This document shows positions 19,767 to 27,414 of a stretch of 64,000 nt of DNA, piece by piece (positions within the stretch are counted from its first letter, which is position 1; every line of letters starts with the position of its first letter). Made by a program: the position numbers and the translations under genes. This DNA comes from Candidatus Thorarchaeota archaeon (GTDB lineage: Archaea > Asgardarchaeota > Thorarchaeia > Thorarchaeales > Thorarchaeaceae): contig JBHLQH010000004.1 in assembly GCA_048884965.1 (NCBI GenBank), positions 1 through 64,000 of the forward strand. Direction: 5' to 3'. Below the pieces are notes generated by a model. It was not told the origin of the DNA. It did not search any database and saw only the letters and a list, made by a program, of their open reading frames with translations.

Positions 19767-20270
19767 CTACAACTCCTTGTCCCCAATTACTCTATCATCA
19801 ATAGGTTCTCCTATATCTAGGAGTTCAGGGAAGATCTTCATTGCGGTCTTGTTGTGTCTTACACTCCTACTAATCCAATTCAGCCATTCATCCTCTTTGA
19901 TATCACATTCCTCTAGACGCTTCATGATGGTTTCTAAGACATGGTCTCTAGGAACATAGACAAAAGCTTCGCCAAATTCGGTATCTACTGTGATTCTATC
20001 ATAATGGTATGGGTACCCCTCAGCATCATCGATGAGTTTCAGATTCTTCTTGTTTGTCTCAGTGACTAACATAAGAACGCTCGAATTGCTATCTTTGATG
20101 ATATATGGATGTGTATCTCTTGGTAGTAGAATTCGCTTCCACCCTTTTACTTCTGAAAATCCTTTTACTTTCACATCCCAATAATACTGCTTTGCAGTCA
20201 TATCATCACTTATGGTTTCAAGTGCATCGGTGATAAAAGTACCATAGCCAGCTATTATGACATTCTTCAT
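19767..20270 (-). CDS. Gamma-glutamylcyclotransferase (AIG2/GGCT)-like protein
   Basis: N-terminal AGYGTF; LIDDAEGYPYHYDRITV; AFVYV. Confidence 0.7.
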   Translation of the reverse strand: MKNVIIAGYGTFITDALETISDDMTAKQYYWDVKVKGFSEVKGWKRILLPRDTHPYIIKDSNSSVLMLVTETNKKNLKLIDDAEGYPYHYDRITVDTEFGEAFVYVPRDHVLETIMKRLEECDIKEDEWLNWISRSVRHNKTAMKIFPELLDIGEPIDDRVIGDKEL

Positions 20271-21373
20271 CGAATCACCTGTTTCGCACGTTTGTAGAGT
20301 CTGATGGTTTTCTTCGTTAGTTCATTAGTCTTATACTCATAATGACTTCGAGGTGGTGTGGCAATATATTCGTCTAGAAACTCTATAGTTATACCAAGGA
20401 CTCTGGTGAAATACTCCTTCTCTGATGCTTCTTCCTCAGGAGTATAATGAGGGATCTCAAGCTCTTTTAGGGCTTCTTCACGAGTCAATTGACCTGCACA
20501 GATCAGACATGAATAGTGTGCTCTTCGCTTGTCAAAGCCAAATTTCTTGGGAAAGATGTAGCTCTCGACAAACTTGGTATATCGATCTTCGCTATGCTTT
20601 CGACCATAGTCAATCCAACCAAACTCCTTTGCCAAATCTTCCTTCGCTTTGAATTTATTGTAAGGCGGATCTACATGATTCAGTAGTCTAAACTCCTTGA
20701 AGCCTTTGAAGCTATGCATAACTGTTCGACTGAAGAGATTCAGGAGTTTTGTTTCTTTGAGTGGTATTGTCCCATGTCGCTTGTGTATGTCTAGAATGTT
20801 CGTCGCATCGCCATTATCGTAGCCCCAATTACTTGGTAGAAAGCCCTCTGTAATGAAATTTCCACCATTAAGTAAGCTATGAATTTTATTATCATGACAT
20901 GCTTGATAGCAGAATGTTCGAAGAATGTTATCTGTCGGTGCTTCAAGACCAACAACACTTGCCTTTAGGTAGGAGTTGATTATATCACGATACTCTCGAT
21001 GATTAAAGCGCGGATGAAAGAAATCGAAACCAGTTGTATTCACTATATTTTGGACATTCAACCATGCTGCTTTTGTATTCCATCCAGAGTCTGCATGAAC
21101 GAGAAGAACATTCAATCCATGTTTCCATACAAGTCTAGCAAGCTCACTACTATCAACTCCACCACTTAGACCAAGCACAGCATCATATTTTCCGTCTCTT
21201 CTGTTTTCAAGGAGCTCATCTATGATTACTTCAATTGGCCTTCGGTCCACTTTATGTTCCCAGTTTATGTGCCAGTCTTTGCAGTAATTACAGACTCCAT
21301 CCTCATCAAATGTGATATCGCCTGCTGTGGTGTCCATAACGCATCGAGTGCATATCTGATATTCTTGCGTCAT
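20267..21373 (-). CDS. N-acetyl sugar amidotransferase (WbpG-like)
   Basis: CTRCVMDT, GVCNYC, YDAVLGLSGGVDSS PP-loop, YGRKHSE, FGFDKRR, GQLTREEAL. Confidence 0.88.
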   Translation of the reverse strand: MTQEYQICTRCVMDTTAGDITFDEDGVCNYCKDWHINWEHKVDRRPIEVIIDELLENRRDGKYDAVLGLSGGVDSSELARLVWKHGLNVLLVHADSGWNTKAAWLNVQNIVNTTGFDFFHPRFNHREYRDIINSYLKASVVGLEAPTDNILRTFCYQACHDNKIHSLLNGGNFITEGFLPSNWGYDNGDATNILDIHKRHGTIPLKETKLLNLFSRTVMHSFKGFKEFRLLNHVDPPYNKFKAKEDLAKEFGWIDYGRKHSEDRYTKFVESYIFPKKFGFDKRRAHYSCLICAGQLTREEALKELEIPHYTPEEEASEKEYFTRVLGITIEFLDEYIATPPRSHYEYKTNELTKKTIRLYKRAKQVIR

Positions 21374-21621
21374 GATGGCTCAGTGAAACACTCAGTATAT
21401 TATGTATAAAGTTTCTGTACCTAGAATTCAGAGATCAAAGCAATGAAAGACTGCTAATCCTATAGAGGTGTCTCAGTTCCGTTTATTCTGTACTGAATCC
21501 GAACTTTCCTTATCCTGAACAAGGTATATTCCACTTAGTTCACTGTCATCATAGAATTCATGTCAGGAGCTAGAACGAAAACATTCACATCATTGGCTAC
21601 AGGGACATCCTCTTAGTTTTA

Positions 21622-21810
21622 ATGACAAATGTCGCGACCAGATATCCAGGCAGTAGTGAAGTACTCGATGCACCAGAAACAACTGAAACATCGACGATGA
21701 CAACATCAGAACTAGACTTGACTCCCATATTTCTTACAATCAGTAGTATCGAGCTGGTTGCCATTGTTCTTCTGGTGGCATTATACTTCAAGCAACGTAA
21801 ATCAGGTTGA
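21622..21810 (+). pseudogene. Remnant C-terminus of a membrane-anchored surface protein
   Basis: Thr-rich linker, TM helix and basic tail (ETTETSTMTTSE...LVAIVLLVALYFKQRK) with no upstream ectodomain. Confidence 0.45.
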
Positions 21811-21844
21811 AAGACCATTACAGGAGCTGTATGAGGAAATCAGA

Positions 21845-22264
21845 TTACCTCCTATCTAGTACAAGGACCTTCGGGAGCTTCAGTAGTTTACCCATATTAC
21901 GACCAGTTGTTCCGCCTTTGTAGCGAAGCCGCCTCTTCCCAAAGCGATTCTTTCCGGTCATCATTTTGACGGTGGAATATTCACCATTTGTGAAATACAT
22001 AAGATCCTCAGGATCTGATATGAGTTCCAGGTCATATTCATCCAATTTCCCCTTACTCAGAGTGTATTCTCCATCGTGAGCGATTAGATTTAGCCAGAAT
22101 ATGAATTCCTCCTCAACATGCAGTCCGAGATTGATTCTTGCCTCGAACTCATCAAGTGTCTTGGAATTCTCAGGATTCTTACGTTTGTCAGCAATAACAT
22201 CATCGATGACCGTCTTGAAGGTTAGGAACAAGGTCTCTTGCGCCGATTCATCCATTGCATTCAC
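21845..22264 (-). CDS. SCP2 sterol/lipid-binding-like domain protein (divergent)
   Basis: SCP2-like topology (strands, DLELISDPEDLMYFTNGE, LRYKG..MGKLLKL); directly downstream of a clear SCP2 gene. Confidence 0.55.
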   Translation of the reverse strand: MNAMDESAQETLFLTFKTVIDDVIADKRKNPENSKTLDEFEARINLGLHVEEEFIFWLNLIAHDGEYTLSKGKLDEYDLELISDPEDLMYFTNGEYSTVKMMTGKNRFGKRRLRYKGGTTGRNMGKLLKLPKVLVLDRR

Positions 22265-22273
22265 CCCATAAGT

Positions 22274-22723
22274 CTAGAAATAGTCTGTTTCAATCATACC
22301 AGCGGTTCTGACGAGTTCTTTAGCAGCATCTGTCGCCTTGAGAACCTTTGCCATGTTCCCCTGTATCTTTGCCTTGCCGCTTAGCAATCCACGAATTGGG
22401 TCAAGTTCACCCTTCAATATTAGCACCCAAGTGTCATAGCTTGCCGCATAGGTATACTCTACGCCAAGCTTGCTAGCATTACTTGCGCTCTCTCCTTCAC
22501 CAACTACTTCATAATCACTCTCACCGGAGAGCGCCTTGACTCCTGTACACTTACCATGCTCTAATCCAACATAGGCGAAGATGTCATGATCTAGATTCCC
22601 ACTAGATCGTACAATGAAAACAAAATCTCCAGTCCACCAAGATGCGGCCTTGGCATAGTCTTCATTCTTATTCAAAGCAACTTCGTAGAGTTCCAACCAC
22701 TCTGGTGAAAATAGTACCGGCAT
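22274..22723 (-). CDS. SCP2 sterol-binding domain protein
   Basis: FSPEW...ALN...YAKAA.WW.GDF; YDTW..ILKGELDPIRGLLSGKAKIQGNM. Confidence 0.85.
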   Translation of the reverse strand: MPVLFSPEWLELYEVALNKNEDYAKAASWWTGDFVFIVRSSGNLDHDIFAYVGLEHGKCTGVKALSGESDYEVVGEGESASNASKLGVEYTYAASYDTWVLILKGELDPIRGLLSGKAKIQGNMAKVLKATDAAKELVRTAGMIETDYF

Positions 22724-22790
22724 TCTCTTACCTCTCCATGACTCAAGAATTCATCTTAGAATTAAAAGGAAAACGACTAGATAAATGGTT

Positions 22791-23072
22791 TCAACCGCCA
22801 GCGACTAGTGGAAAGATTGCTAAGATATCTCCCTCTTCAAGAGTTGTTTCAAGTCCATCCAGAAATTTTATCTCGCGGCCATTCTTCAGAAGCGTAATAT
22901 CTGCCTTTACTTCTTCATTCTCGTTCATCAGTGCCTGTCTGATTTTGGAGTTCTCGCATATCTTGCTAAGAACCTGTGAAACCTTTGTAGGTTCATCCAC
23001 GTCAAGCTCCAGTACAGAATGACCTCCAATCAGGTTTCGGAGGTGAGCGTAGAACTTGACTGCGATTTTCAT
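22791..23072 (-). CDS. MoaD/ThiS/SAMP ubiquitin-like sulfur carrier
   Basis: MKIAVKFYAHLR...LKNGREI..LDGLET.LEEGD.LAIFPLVAGG with C-terminal diglycine. Start set at ATG 23072. Confidence 0.9.
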   Translation of the reverse strand: MKIAVKFYAHLRNLIGGHSVLELDVDEPTKVSQVLSKICENSKIRQALMNENEEVKADITLLKNGREIKFLDGLETTLEEGDILAIFPLVAGG

Positions 23073-23104
23073 CCAATCACCTTGTATACGTCTAGACAGC
23101 ACGC

Positions 23105-23112
23105 TTATAAAA
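23105..23112. promoter_or_regulatory. TATA-like box in divergent moaD-like / AOR-ACS promoter
   Basis: TTATAAAA in the 80-bp intergenic region. Confidence 0.4.
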
Positions 23113-23152
23113 CCGTACAGACACGGTGCTGTGATTAGGGGTCCTTCTCGAA

Positions 23153-26100
23153 ATGTATGGATACATGGGAAAAATCCTGAGAGTCAATCTTTCGACTGGC
23201 TCTATCACTGAAGAGTTTCCAGATGAAGAAACACTAAGAAAATATCTTGGTGGGTCAGGATTGGCAACGAAATATCTCTTTGACGAAACTGAAGCTGGAA
23301 TCGACCCACTTGGACCTGAGAATAAGCTCATCTTCATGACTGGTCCATTGACAGGAACACATTCTCCCAGCACGGGCAGGTACAGTGTTGTCACGAAGGC
23401 ACCTCTCACAAATGGTTGGGGACAAGCAAACTCAGCAGGATTCTGGGGACGTGATTTCAAGCGCTCAGGATTCGATGGAGTGATTTTTGAAGGAATATCC
23501 CCCAAACCTGTGTATCTTCTTACAGAGGATGGCAAAGCGGAGCTTGTTGATGCAAGCGAACTCTGGGGTAAGAACACCTCTGAAACGACTAGAATCTTGA
23601 AAGAGAAGCATGGTCCAAAATTCAATGTGGCATGTATTGGTATTGCTGGTGAGAAGCTAGTCAAATATGCAGCCATCATGAATGACTGCGATGAAGAGAA
23701 TTGGGGACGGGCCGCAGGTAGATGTGGTGTAGGCGCTGTAATGGGCTCAAAGAATCTCAAAGCAATAGCTTCGAAAGGGACATTGCAGATACCAATTGCT
23801 GACCCAGAGAAGTATCGAGAGGAAGCCAAGCAGAGATTCGATTGGGTAAACCAGAGCATCTTGAAGATGACACTCGAGGTCTATGGAACTGCAACAATGG
23901 TAGATCTTGTGAATGTAAAGGGAGGAATCCCCACCAAGAATTGGCAGACTGGAGTGTTCGAGAATGCTGAAGCAATCAATGGCACTGCAATCAACGACAA
24001 GATCCTTGTTAAGAGAAAGCCATGCTTTGCCTGCCCAATACATTGTGGAAGAATAGCAGAGATCAAAGCAGGTCCATTCAAGAGTAAGGGGGAGGGTCCC
24101 GAATATGAAACTATTAGCTCTTTCGGAACAATGTGTGGCGTAGACAATCTTGAAGCCATTACACTTGCTCATTTCCTTTGTAACGAATATGGCTTGGATA
24201 CGATCTCAGCGGGCAGCTCGGTTGCATTTGCTATGGAGTGCTATCAACGTGGAATCCTGAAACCAGAGGATGTGGATGGTCTAGACTTCTCATGGGGTAA
24301 TGCTCAACTGATCGTGGATATAGTAGAGAAGATAGCAAAGCGAGAGGGCGTAGGTGACTTCCTTGCGGAAGGAACGATGAGGATGTCTCAGAAGCTTGGT
24401 CAAGGTTCAGAGCATTTTGCAATGCATGTCAAGGGTCTCGAACTCCCCGGCTATGATAGCCGTGCGGCAAAGGTGACGGGACTTGCCTATGCAGTCGCCA
24501 ATCGCGGAGGAGACCACATTACAGCATACATTGAAGGACCAGCATTTCTGTCGATGCCTTTTATGATAGTCGAGGATGCAGATGTTGGAGACCCGTTGAA
24601 GGAGATTCCTGAAACAGCGCTTATCGTGAAGAACTTTGAAGACTCCCTCGGCAACTTTGATGCGATTGGTGGATGCAAATTCATGGGGATGGTCCTTACA
24701 GCTGATGATTGGGCAAGTTTGATTTCCAGCTTGATGGGCATCGATATGTCAGCAGATGAGTTCCGTAGAACTGGAGAGCGTATCTACAATCTTGAACGCG
24801 CATACATTCTACGGGAAGGATTCACAAGGGCAGATGACACCCTACCACCAAGACTGCTGGAGGACCCATTACCCGAAGGTCCTGCGGAAGGCCATGTTGT
24901 AGACCTCGACATTCTATTGGACGCGTATTATCAATATCGAGGGTGGGATGAATATGGAAGACCCACAATTGAGAAGCTGAAAGAGCTTGACTTGGAATGG
25001 CTGGTAGAAGTCGTACATGGTGATATTGTACCAATTCAAGAGGTTGTTAGGAAGAAGGTAAAGGATCTACCAGAAGTGGAGCGAAAGCAAGTATACGCAG
25101 GGACCAAAGTATCACTCAGCGACAAGCCTTGGCTTGATAACTACTTCATCGGACCATTCAAGCTTGCACAATCAATGAAGCCCTATCCTCAAATAAACAT
25201 CTACAAATTCCTAGAAGACACAGCAAGTGAGTTTCCAGACCTTATTGCTTGCGAGTACGCAGGTGAGGAGATGACATACCCTGAGCTGAAGGACAAGGTG
25301 GACAGACTTGCTTCAGCATTTGTGTCACTCGGAGTTAAGAAAGGTGATAAAGTAGCCACAGTTCTACCATCATGTCCTGAATTTATCATTGCAGACTATG
25401 CGGCGATGAAGATTGGTGCGGTACACGTACCTTTGAGCATACTGCATAAGGCGGATGATTTAGAGTACGAGCTAGGGGAGAGTGCAGCAGAGGTCGTTGT
25501 GTGCTCCTATAGAAGGATAGAACGAGTCAATCAGGTAAAGCCGAAGACTAAGGTGAAGAAAGTAATCTATGCGCCAACCAAACTCTATCCGGATTATCAA
25601 TATCCCGAAATGAAGATGATTGATGATACTGACTACTATCTGATGAGTGATTTGCTCGAGAAATATGAGCCGCATTCTCAAACTGTGGAGATTGACCCAA
25701 TGGAAGATATCGCGCTGTTGCCTTTCACAGGAGGCACTACAGGTCTTCCAAAAGGAACGATGCTTACGCACTATAATATTACATCCAACGTAAGGCAAAG
25801 CATTCACTGGATGATGGAGCCGCTGAAAGAAGGAATCATTGGGAAGAGCTCTGCTGTCGTCTGCATTCCCATCTTCCATGCCTACGGGCATTGGGCGATT
25901 CATGCATGCATTTCATGGGGCATCAAGATGTACCTTCTAGACCCTAGAGACATCCCCAAGATCGTAGATGTGATTAACAAGCATCGTCCATTCATTGTCT
26001 TCGCTGTACCAACACACTACGCATTATTCTCCAGCTTCGATCTAGCCAAGGCACAGATCTTTTACTTCTCAGGCGCTGCAGCTTTAGCAGAAGAACTAGC

Positions 26101-26785
26101 CGAAGAATTCGAGAGAAAGGCGGGGGTTCCAATGGGAGAGGGATACGGTGCGACAGAAACTTCCTGTGTAGCAACCATCAATATCTCAGCCCTCTCAAAA
26201 GTAACAGGATTCATGGCTGAAACTAAGAGAGGTGTAGGGATACCAATACCAGATACAGAGATCAAGATCGTCGACCCCGACACAGGAGAGGAACTTCCTA
26301 TTGGTGAACGAGGAGAGATCTGGATAAGAGGACCGCAGATTATGGCAGGTTATTTCCCTAACAGGGGAAGTGGTCTCAAAGCGGAGGGCTGGTTGCCAAT
26401 GGGGGACATTGTTGAGATGGACCAAGAAGGATACTTCAAAGTCGTAGATAGAATCAAGGATATGATCAATGTGTCCGGAAACAAAGTGTACAGTCGGGTC
26501 ATTGACGATATCCTTCATGAGCATGAAGCAGTCGAAATTGCTGGCGTCATTGGCATCCCTGATCCGGATAGACCAGGAAGTGAGAGAGTCAAGGCTTTCA
26601 TCCAACTCAAGCCCGAATTCAGGGGGCAGATAACAGAGAGCGATATCATAGAGTTTCTGAAAGGGAAGGTAAAACCCTACGCAGTTCCGAAGTCTGTCGA
26701 GTTTAGAGATGAACTCCCACTCACAATAGTCATGAAGTTGTTCAAGAAGAAATTGAGAGAAGAAGAGCTAGAAAAATCTCGTTGA
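23153..26785 (+). CDS. Fusion: aldehyde:ferredoxin oxidoreductase (W/Mo-AOR family) + long-chain acyl-CoA synthetase
   Basis: aa 1-~620: GKILRVNLS, GRCGVGAVMGSKNLKA, CFACPIHC, GPEYET, GLDTIS, YYQYRGWD..GRPT. aa ~660-1210: KPWL, FTGGTTGLPKG, EGYGATE, GEIWIRGPQ, GD, DRIKDMINVSG. Confidence 0.92.
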   Translation: MYGYMGKILRVNLSTGSITEEFPDEETLRKYLGGSGLATKYLFDETEAGIDPLGPENKLIFMTGPLTGTHSPSTGRYSVVTKAPLTNGWGQANSAGFWGRDFKRSGFDGVIFEGISPKPVYLLTEDGKAELVDASELWGKNTSETTRILKEKHGPKFNVACIGIAGEKLVKYAAIMNDCDEENWGRAAGRCGVGAVMGSKNLKAIASKGTLQIPIADPEKYREEAKQRFDWVNQSILKMTLEVYGTATMVDLVNVKGGIPTKNWQTGVFENAEAINGTAINDKILVKRKPCFACPIHCGRIAEIKAGPFKSKGEGPEYETISSFGTMCGVDNLEAITLAHFLCNEYGLDTISAGSSVAFAMECYQRGILKPEDVDGLDFSWGNAQLIVDIVEKIAKREGVGDFLAEGTMRMSQKLGQGSEHFAMHVKGLELPGYDSRAAKVTGLAYAVANRGGDHITAYIEGPAFLSMPFMIVEDADVGDPLKEIPETALIVKNFEDSLGNFDAIGGCKFMGMVLTADDWASLISSLMGIDMSADEFRRTGERIYNLERAYILREGFTRADDTLPPRLLEDPLPEGPAEGHVVDLDILLDAYYQYRGWDEYGRPTIEKLKELDLEWLVEVVHGDIVPIQEVVRKKVKDLPEVERKQVYAGTKVSLSDKPWLDNYFIGPFKLAQSMKPYPQINIYKFLEDTASEFPDLIACEYAGEEMTYPELKDKVDRLASAFVSLGVKKGDKVATVLPSCPEFIIADYAAMKIGAVHVPLSILHKADDLEYELGESAAEVVVCSYRRIERVNQVKPKTKVKKVIYAPTKLYPDYQYPEMKMIDDTDYYLMSDLLEKYEPHSQTVEIDPMEDIALLPFTGGTTGLPKGTMLTHYNITSNVRQSIHWMMEPLKEGIIGKSSAVVCIPIFHAYGHWAIHACISWGIKMYLLDPRDIPKIVDVINKHRPFIVFAVPTHYALFSSFDLAKAQIFYFSGAAALAEELAEEFERKAGVPMGEGYGATETSCVATINISALSKVTGFMAETKRGVGIPIPDTEIKIVDPDTGEELPIGERGEIWIRGPQIMAGYFPNRGSGLKAEGWLPMGDIVEMDQEGYFKVVDRIKDMINVSGNKVYSRVIDDILHEHEAVEIAGVIGIPDPDRPGSERVKAFIQLKPEFRGQITESDIIEFLKGKVKPYAVPKSVEFRDELPLTIVMKLFKKKLREEELEKSR

Positions 26786-26811
26786 TCATACGACTCCTAG
26801 GAGAGAACAAT

Positions 26812-27414
26812 ATGGGAAAGGCAATTCTTCTCGATATGGACGGAGTAATTCGACATTTAGATTTACAGAATGCAGAGAAATATGCAAAAAAGATTGGTGT
26901 GACATTTACGGAACTCTCTGCGATTATTTGGGATAGGAGATTTATCAAGGACCTGATCTGTGGAAAAATCAACAGGGAGGAATGGTGGATTTGTCTTCAG
27001 AAGTCGTATGATATTCTTGCAGATGTGAATCAAGAAATCATATGGCAGGGAGTTCTAGGTGAAAATTATTTCAATGAGGAACTAATTTCATTCGTTAGAT
27101 CACTCAAGGATAAAGCGACCATTGCCATTCTAACGAACTGTGATTCAATCTCAAAAGCACGAATTGTCAAGGAGTTGGAAAGATTCGATGCATTTCATGA
27201 AATCTTCTCCTCTAGCGACTTAGGTCATGCTAAACCAGAGATTGAGATATTCTTAGAAGTACAGAAGGAGTTAAAGAAACAGCCCAATGAAATCATCTTC
27301 TTCGACGATAGTGTGGATAATGTTGAAGCTGCTTCCATCATCGGAATACATGCATTTGTCTATGATACGGTTGAGAATGCAAAGCAACGGATTTATGAAT
27401 TCCTTGGAATCTAG
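26812..27414 (+). CDS. HAD-superfamily hydrolase
   Basis: LLDMDGVI, ILTN, GHAKPE, FFDDSVDNV. Confidence 0.88.
   Translation: MGKAILLDMDGVIRHLDLQNAEKYAKKIGVTFTELSAIIWDRRFIKDLICGKINREEWWICLQKSYDILADVNQEIIWQGVLGENYFNEELISFVRSLKDKATIAILTNCDSISKARIVKELERFDAFHEIFSSSDLGHAKPEIEIFLEVQKELKKQPNEIIFFDDSVDNVEAASIIGIHAFVYDTVENAKQRIYEFLGI

Follow-up and report, generated by a model that had tools for sequence, protein, structure and literature searches.

What does a protein do that joins an aldehyde:ferredoxin oxidoreductase (AOR) to an acyl-CoA synthetase (ACS), and what is the role of the small sterol carrier protein 2 (SCP2)-like proteins encoded beside it? This question is raised by a locus in a 64,000-nucleotide stretch of DNA from a Candidatus Thorarchaeota archaeon (hereafter the window), which comes from contig C4 of the metagenome-assembled genome (MAG) G000 (4.09 Mb, 95.7% complete). 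A sequence-only reading of the window had proposed a self-contained system for lipid aldehydes, in which a MoaD-like gene and two SCP2-like genes face the fusion gene and a HAD hydrolase gene across an 80-bp divergent spacer. The analysis showed what the domains are, that the catalytic residues are intact, that the gene linkage is conserved and that AOR and ACS were fused at least twice independently. It is probable, in our judgement, that the unit is an anaerobic module that converts a hydrophobic alcohol or aldehyde to the acid and then to acyl-CoA, making reduced ferredoxin. The five genes and the spacer were confirmed by the open reading frame (ORF) list, a Pfam scan and the translations, with the following layout (aa, amino acids):

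21845–22255, minus strand: X139, the second SCP2-fold protein, 136 aa (fold match by AlphaFold2 and Foldseek)
22274–22723, minus strand: P0003, SCP2 carrier of the TT1886-like subfamily, 149 aa (Pfam SCP2)
22791–23072, minus strand: MoaD/SAMP1-like beta-grasp sulfur carrier, 93 aa (Pfam ThiS, NCBIfam)
23073–23152, no strand: divergent promoter region, exactly 80 bp
23153–26785, plus strand: whole AOR-ACS fusion, 1210 aa (AFOR_N, AFOR_C, AMP-binding, AMP-binding_C)
23153–25018, plus strand: AOR domain of the fusion, aa 1–622 (AFOR_N, AFOR_C)
25019–25120, plus strand: fusion linker of about 34 aa, Lys/Glu/Val-rich and poorly conserved (junction alignment)
25121–26785, plus strand: AMP-forming, FadD-like ACS domain, aa 657–1210 (AMP-binding, AMP-binding_C)
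26812–27414, plus strand: HAD-IA hydrolase, 200 aa (Pfam Hydrolase; DMDGV motif)

The fusion's N-terminal domain matched Pfam AFOR_N (E 1e-77) and AFOR_C (E 5e-138) at full length. Its best PDB match was the broad-specificity P. furiosus AOR (1AOR, E 4e-162), followed by FOR (1e-112), WOR5 (5e-76) and BamB (6e-67), and by this ranking of E-values the domain is predicted to be a tungstopterin aldehyde:ferredoxin oxidoreductase of the AOR-proper subfamily. The [4Fe-4S] ligands Cys291, Cys294, Cys298 and Cys508 align to those of 1AOR and are invariant in 27 orthologues, as are Glu319 (P. furiosus Glu313) and His455 (P. furiosus His448) at the tungsten site. The domain therefore resembles the single-subunit P. 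furiosus enzyme in its full-length match, its cluster cysteines and its tungsten-site residues; it differs in the C-terminal acyl-CoA ligase, the linkage to SCP2 and small insertions relative to 1AOR. No AorA- or AorC-type partner subunits are encoded beside it. The fusion gene is single-copy, in a genome that has ten AOR-like genes.

The C-terminal domain matched AMP-binding (E 1.5e-86) and AMP-binding_C (E 4e-13) in Pfam, and its best PDB match was FadD-1 of A. fulgidus (3G7S, E 3e-62), with 4-coumarate and feruloyl-CoA ligases likewise among the high matches. In NCBIfam, six of the seven best matches and most of the top ten carry the name of a long-chain-fatty-acid CoA ligase, all of them below the cut-off. 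The leaning to long chains proposed for the system is supported by the nearest relatives of the ligase in both PDB and NCBIfam; because the ligase stays below the curated long-chain ligase cut-offs, we call it FadD-like only and assign it to no equivalog. At least 95% of 42 orthologue rows keep the P-loop (859–867), E996, G997, G999, T1001 and E1002 of the A5-type motif, the hinge G1084-D1085, D1099, R1100, K1102 and D1103, and Lys1195 (A10). FadD-type synthetases (A. fulgidus FadD-1; T. thermophilus LC-FACS, 1ULT) share with it the two-domain ANL form, the core motifs and the catalytic Lys. Unlike those free-standing enzymes, it carries an AOR at its N terminus, falls short of every NCBIfam equivalog cut-off and has an atypical C-terminal motif, LPLTIVMK instead of LP.T..GK. 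All catalytic residues checked in both domains were intact.

The two activities have been joined more than once. Among 5.8 billion proteins, the fused architecture was found only in Thorarchaeota (78–87% identity) and in a clade labelled Hodarchaeota (61–64% identity); a junction query was run over 400 Asgard genomes. AOR and ACS are separate but adjacent genes in most lineages: in part of the Thorarchaeota, in family f11, in several genera of f22 and in f32, with gaps of 5–72 nt (988 nt in L065, the exception), and in many cases they share a reading frame. In a quick maximum-likelihood tree built from 41 rows of concatenated AOR and ACS, the fused forms fell into two separate clades, one of 12 Thorarchaeota rows (support 100) and one of four f11 rows (support 98). 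Split forms surround each clade, at least two changes are forced by the tree, and the linkers of the Thorarchaeota and the Hodarchaeota family are unlike in length and sequence. AOR and ACS were fused at least twice independently, in Thorarchaeota and in the Hodarchaeota family. Because adjacent genes were twice fused in this way, we regard the fusions as strong evidence that the two activities would act in sequence, as consecutive steps.

Two side observations concern fusion itself. In the split Thorarchaeota loci L053–L059, AOR and ACS lie in-frame, 2–7 codons apart including one or two stops (TGA/TAG); the loss of one stop would fuse them, and read-through could yield some fused protein. 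Separately, the nearest non-orthologous AORs (43–48% identity, 810–860 aa; P0056–P0099 and others) are fused to a domain of the 3-hexulose-6-phosphate synthase/OMP-decarboxylase type. The MAGs that encode them carry the labels Methanomethylicaceae, Nezhaarchaeales, Thermoprotei and Hodarchaeales, and these proteins suggest a putative formaldehyde-handling fusion.

Conserved linkage of SCP2 with the fusion had been named beforehand as the test of the proposal. The analysis covered 44 Asgard loci anchored on AOR/ACS, and about 20 kb around 40 further loci was fetched and all ORFs were scored. The results showed that a P0003-type SCP2 gene adjoins AOR/ACS in 39 of the 44 loci, so that the expected linkage held. 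Among the five loci without it, three are cut by a contig end and two (L047 and L066) have no intact AOR part. X139 is present in 24 loci and adjoins SCP2 in every Thorarchaeota locus; MoaD occurs in 21 loci, in three different arrangements, and an Fe-type alcohol dehydrogenase (Fe-ADH) in 10. The gene orders were as follows (genus g72 of f22 has an order related to that of g60 and g71):

Thorarchaeota, fused: X139-SCP2-MoaD, divergent from the fusion
Thorarchaeota, split: X139-SCP2-AOR-ACS
Family f11: FeADH-SCP2, divergent from AOR-ACS-MoaD
Family f22, genus g70: AOR-ACS-SCP2
Family f22, genera g60 and g71: AOR-ACS-MoaD-SCP2, then X139 on the opposite strand

SCP2 is thus kept beside AOR/ACS in at least four gene orders, among AOR-ACS proteins down to about 60% identical. 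Because several Asgard families have these genes together, their arrangement is not due to chance. In addition, five Thorarchaeota loci have a MaoC-type double-hotdog hydratase gene immediately after ACS, and the f11 loci contain a class-III (omega-type) aminotransferase. An FGGY kinase gene lies near the module in L010.

Both small proteins had been taken for SCP2-like, and the structure models agree with this at the level of the fold, with a Pfam SCP2 match for P0003 only (25 bits against a cut-off of 21.3, a partial match). The AlphaFold2 model of P0003 (pLDDT 93) matched Thermus TT1886 best in Foldseek (2CX7/1WFR, E 4e-11, 30% identity; TM 0.74–0.86 against 2CX7), and the next matches were exclusively other SCP2 structures. 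A profile search of PDB with P0003 returned TT1886 at E 8e-25. This TT1886-like subfamily is large, with 1086 clusters at 50% identity for E <= 1e-3 and 467 for E <= 1e-10. Its orthologue alignment (A1, 23 sequences) showed an invariant Cys59 and a nearly invariant His56 within the motif L-x-H-G-x-C (residues 54–59), of which His-Gly-x-Cys is also present in TT1886, as well as a conserved W-x-G-D motif. An invariant Cys is unusual for a passive lipid carrier, and an aldehyde, as a thiohemiacetal, or a metal could be bound there.

X139 (P0002) is 139 aa long from a GTG in the ORF list; its orthologues and the database copy start at Met4, giving 136 aa. It is single-copy in this genome and belongs to a family of 807 proteins (16 sequences in alignment A2), all named members of which are Asgard. 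It had no match in Pfam or NCBIfam and did not reach the SCP2 Pfam gathering score. Its AlphaFold2 model (pLDDT 89) matched only SCP2 folds among about 40 top PDB matches in Foldseek, the best being 3BN8 (E 9e-6), with TM values of 0.5–0.6 among the top matches. A comparison of the A1 and X139 families by hhalign showed no significant relation. Because there is no Pfam match, the profile comparison is non-significant and the match is to the fold only, we describe X139 as having a predicted SCP2-like fold, and not as a member of the SCP2 family by sequence; its kinship with P0003 is one of modelled fold only.

In SCPx, MFE-2 and the alkylsulfatase SdsA1, an SCP2 carrier is tied to enzymes that act on hydrophobic acyl or alkyl substrates, as would be the case here. 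The present proteins share the fold of the SCP2 domains of SCPx and MFE-2, of the SCP2-like C-domain of SdsA1 and of TT1886. They differ from known SCP2 proteins in that they are free-standing and linked to an oxygen-sensitive tungsten enzyme, in the subfamily-wide His-Gly-x-Cys with its invariant Cys, and in that X139 lacks a sequence match to Pfam SCP2. A complex prediction for the AOR domain (alignment A3) and SCP2 (A1) scored 0.02 against a mark of 0.32, which speaks neither for nor against binding. Among 83 long proteins, no AOR with an SCP2 domain was found, the AORs of 710–750 aa having other N-terminal extensions. Fusion partners of members of the same SCP2 subfamily are a B12-binding radical-SAM enzyme, a Zn-ADH domain of the GroES-like type and a methyltransferase (P0462, 820 aa; P0493, 283 aa; P0466, 382 aa).

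We also approached the linkage from the side of SCP2. The SCP2 profile's 80 top-scoring genome loci were all labelled Asgard, except for one Nanopelagicaceae bacterium contig and several of an 'uncultured archaeon'; 48 of them had at least 3 kb on both sides. AOR was present in 28 of these 48 loci (within 3 kb in 27) and ACS in 26. More distant SCP2 relatives, 35–50% identical to one another, stand in other contexts. On two JGI metagenome contigs (L086:762-10414 and L087), the order is alkylsulfatase, SulP (a sulfate transporter), DUF308, SCP2, FeADH, AOR, x, AOR, which looks like a candidate cluster for anaerobic degradation of alkyl sulfates (detergent or lipid sulfate). SCP2-AOR occurs in Heimdallarchaeota, SCP2-FeADH pairs were found, and in a Nitrososphaerota MAG SCP2 lies beside a fragmented aldehyde dehydrogenase of the NAD type (PF00171). 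A Theionarchaea MAG (L173:752-8932) has GlpA/B-like flavoproteins, DUF1667, glycerol kinase and SCP2, with an FeADH-AOR operon tail-to-tail; this context may hint at breakdown of glycerolipids or ether lipids. The same GlpA/B-DUF1667-glycerol kinase genes surround P0365. The genome studied here has a paralogous module in which an adjacent FeADH-AOR pair is preceded, about 4 kb upstream, by SCP2 and an NMO-like FMN enzyme (C2:180843-188286, L084). This SCP2 is the only other strong A1-type SCP2 of the genome, and both A1-type genes are within about 5 kb of an AOR.

The SCP2-linked AORs are 35–42% identical to each other and come from different AOR subclades; we rejected the idea that they form one clade, as they are no closer than unlinked paralogues. 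Given this diversity of the linked AORs and, in one case, an unrelated aldehyde dehydrogenase as partner, what the SCP2 contexts have in common is alcohol/aldehyde chemistry and not one inherited operon. The contexts with alkylsulfatase, Fe-ADH and aldehyde dehydrogenase point to hydrophobic alcohols and aldehydes, in agreement with the hydrophobic substrate proposed from the window, and the alkylsulfatase context points to long alkyl chains and an oxidative direction. For isoprenoid chains, which had also been suggested, no test result speaks.

The MoaD-like protein ends in Gly-Gly and matched Pfam ThiS (E 2e-10). It passes the NCBIfam cut-offs of both SAMP1 (69.5 bits, cut-off 60) and moaD_arch (59.9 bits, cut-off 49.5). 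That MoaD often accompanies AOR had been taken as established, and its recurrence in the loci above agrees with this; in this genome, another AOR is likewise preceded by a ThiS/MoaD gene, the second one, in the run ThiS/MoaD, amidohydrolase, polyferredoxin, AOR (C58:5320-9342, L085), a further paralogous module. The genome has one E1-like ThiF gene. In Aromatoleum, the aor operon contains the MoaD-like genes aorD and aorE, putative maturation factors of the tungsten cofactor (PMC6365974), and by analogy the protein studied here is likely to take part in AOR cofactor maturation. The Aromatoleum aromaticum system (AorABC with aorD/aorE) is alike as a tungsten AOR operon carrying MoaD-like genes; it is unlike in that it encodes a three-subunit, NAD-linked bacterial complex with neither ligase fusion nor SCP2 (PMC6365974).

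The HAD-IA gene starts 27 nt after the fusion stop and is probably co-transcribed with the fusion in this genome. Its product matched Pfam Hydrolase (E 4.5e-16), and its best NCBIfam match was TIGR02247, an sEH-N-like phosphatase (51 bits against a cut-off of 125). A phmmer search with this HAD gave no match in the other 43 loci, among them one from a genome of the same genus. Because it occurs in this locus only (1 of 44), we rejected it as a member of the module, and the earlier suggestion of a lipid phosphatase belonging to the unit is not supported.

The divergent spacer contains a TTATAAAA box (TATA element) at 23105–23112, 40 nt ahead of the start codon (ATG) of the fusion and about 33 nt away from that of MoaD, and a ribosome-binding-like GGGG run at 23138–23141. 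Across 11 Thorarchaeota loci (the window and ten others), the TTATAAAA box is invariant or nearly so, and the CA-C-A context upstream of it is kept. A 7-bp inverted repeat around the TATA box was rejected as an operator, as it is specific to the window and not conserved in the 10 related loci. Beyond the SCP2 operon lie two further ORFs, which were matched by no cluster conserved with the module; in L011, a BtrH_N/DUF4872 protein is encoded at their position:

20267–21373, minus strand: ORF of 368 aa, no Pfam match
21597–21818, minus strand: ORF of 73 aa, no Pfam match

Taken as an anaerobic oxidation module, the unit would work as follows. An Fe-type alcohol dehydrogenase, whose gene lies within the cluster in some lineages and outside it in the present genome, would convert the alcohol to the aldehyde. 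The N-terminal AOR domain would oxidise the aldehyde to the free acid at its tungstopterin/[4Fe-4S] site and pass two electrons to ferredoxin, and the C-terminal FadD-like domain would adenylate the acid and join it to CoA, with beta-oxidation as one possible use; six genes for acyl-CoA dehydrogenases are present in the genome. Both SCP2-fold proteins would hold the insoluble or reactive substrate or intermediate and hand it over to the enzyme, and the MoaD/SAMP1-like protein would serve the maturation of the sulfur-rich cofactor of AOR. In this scheme we infer the substrate class (medium or long alkyl chains), the direction, the carrier hand-off and the role of MoaD. As for direction, an alkylsulfatase releases a primary alcohol, and omega-type aminotransferases make aldehydes. 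The alkylsulfatase, the f11 aminotransferases and the MaoC hydratase after ACS are hints of oxidation. For alkane-oxidising archaea, a route from long-chain alcohols or alkyl-CoM to acyl-CoA through alcohol dehydrogenase, AOR and FadD has been postulated (PMC10811742). That route has the same three activities, from scattered genes for which there is no linkage evidence (PMC10811742), whereas the genes described here are clustered or fused and come with dedicated carriers.

Several points weigh against the oxidation module. The first concerns the carrier: 20 of the 48 SCP2-anchored loci have no AOR, so that the link is not exclusive, and 19 of these 20 carry one common housekeeping block (PheRS-beta, PheRS-alpha, cytidylyltransferase, x / DUF1512, SCP2, CBS, Zn ribbon, x, HAD-IIA, PPDK). 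Because this block, SCP2 included, exists without AOR, the Loki-type order AOR-ACS-SCP2 may be an insertion beside a resident SCP2; the g70 loci have the same block genes, with AOR-ACS sitting exactly between DUF1512 and SCP2. DUF1512, HAD-IIA and PPDK are genes of the block and not of the module, and the HAD-IIA of the Loki-type loci was rejected as a module member on the ground that its block exists without AOR-ACS. The relation is asymmetric, in that AOR-ACS nearly always has an SCP2 neighbour and SCP2 is often without AOR, a pattern in keeping with a general carrier on which an accessory enzyme draws. Loci with the block are L117–L169 (e.g., L147:4319-5488 and L158:6427-7251) and also L067–L076.

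The second point concerns the cofactor. Searches of this MAG for MoaE, MoaC and MoeA detected none of them; for MoaE, both a PF02391 search and tblastn with a congeneric MoaE were negative. The congeneric moaE neighbourhood is absent as well, so that either a MAG gap or a true loss may lie behind the missing gene, and MoaE was found in just 14 of 40 genomes of Thorarchaeota family f1 with at least 90% completeness. That all three genes went undetected despite ten AOR-like genes reflects either a systematic binning loss of a molybdenum cofactor island or a real dependence on another route or on scavenging. Because they were not found, the MoaD-like protein may or may not have the canonical molybdopterin-synthase role in this MAG; a role as a SAMP-type protein modifier is a possible alternative. 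Together with the SCP2 loci that have no AOR, these missing genes make the description of the system as 'self-contained' too strong. The remaining points concern the chemistry. The ligase meets no NCBIfam equivalog cut-off, its best match being NF004837 at 372 bits against 476. AORs are described as reversible (PMC10816221). Moreover, the unit spends ATP to AMP, although energy could be saved with a CoA-acylating aldehyde dehydrogenase, and this cost needs a rationale; the gain may be low-potential ferredoxin.

The best-surviving alternative, which we consider unlikely, is that the unit runs reductively, starting from fatty acids or acyl-CoA and yielding aldehydes and alcohols, either to dispose of electrons or to provide fatty alcohols to lipids. 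The ligase would then run backwards (acyl-CoA + AMP + PPi to acid + ATP) or activate the acid, AOR would reduce the acid with reduced ferredoxin, and the Fe-ADH would complete the route to the alcohol. Such chemistry has precedent, since AORs are reported to turn acids into aldehydes in Thermoanaerobacter and acetogens, with alcohol dehydrogenases completing the conversion (PMC10816221, PMC8466923); the Fe-ADH linked in 10 loci is consistent with it, and SCP2 carriers would suit lipid products equally. However, the canonical AOR uses free acids and neither acyl-AMP nor acyl-CoA, AMP-forming ligases normally run forwards, and no CAR-type carrier or reductase domain was found by Pfam. The alkylsulfatase, the class-III aminotransferase and the hydratase after ACS also fit catabolism better.

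A different substrate for the oxidation is less probable still. The AOR could act on amino-acid-derived or aromatic aldehydes (arylacetaldehydes, branched-chain aldehydes), like the AORs of P. furiosus and Aromatoleum, with the SCP2 proteins as incidental general carriers. The physiological substrates of the P. furiosus AOR, which is the best match of the AOR domain, are probably amino-acid-derived, and this reading would account for the class-III aminotransferase in the f11 loci, the aromatic ligases (4-coumarate and feruloyl-CoA) high among the PDB matches of the ligase, and the persistence of SCP2 without AOR in many genomes. It does not agree with the top NCBIfam matches, which are almost all long-chain fatty-acid ligases, with an SCP2 adjacency that survives rearrangements and spans AOR subclades and even an aldehyde dehydrogenase, or with the linkage of one SCP2 relative to an alkylsulfatase.

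Very improbable, in our view, is a fusion that works as a tungsten counterpart of carboxylic acid reductase (CAR, A-PCP-R), reducing carboxylates with ferredoxin and driven by ATP. The ligase domain would activate a fatty acid as acyl-AMP or acyl-CoA, the AOR domain would reduce the activated acyl group to the aldehyde, and SCP2, perhaps through a thiohemiacetal on its invariant Cys, would pass it to the Fe-ADH. CAR likewise combines an adenylating domain and an acid/aldehyde-interconverting domain in one polypeptide. The fusion differs from it, with neither a PP-binding carrier nor an NAD(P)H reductase found by Pfam, in its tungstopterin redox domain and in its likely opposite direction; CAR would be an analogue at most, and the fusion is not a CAR member. 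If this reading were true, it would give an anaerobic Asgard route to fatty aldehydes or alcohols, e.g., for ether-type lipids.

Finally, inherited synteny, with SCP2, MoaD and HAD as neighbours that have no functional tie to the fusion, is suggested by a HAD unique to this window and by a Loki-type SCP2 in a block that exists without AOR-ACS, but we judge it highly unlikely in view of the several gene orders and the sequence divergence over which SCP2 stays beside AOR/ACS, the SCP2-AOR, SCP2-FeADH and SCP2-ALDH (aldehyde dehydrogenase) pairs in other archaeal groups, and the contig ends and broken AOR parts that explain the five SCP2-less loci.

In a limited literature search, in which absence is not proof, we found no paper that links AOR with SCP2 or describes an AOR-ACS fusion; an Asgard paper mentions many AORs and not the fusion (PMC11291895). 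How long-chain alcohols and aldehydes enter beta-oxidation in strict anaerobes, especially archaea, has so far been largely guesswork, and the clustered, twice-fused and carrier-coupled activities described here offer a concrete, testable enzyme system. They also provide the first likely context for the abundant TT1886-like SCP2 subfamily and for the unannotated Asgard family X139 with its 807 proteins. Delivery of substrate to a tungsten enzyme by the SCP2 proteins, if it takes place, would be a new way to handle reactive, insoluble aldehydes. Eukaryotic SCP2 domains serve peroxisomal beta-oxidation, and the oxidation module has a bearing on how the archaeal relatives of eukaryotes turn over their lipids.

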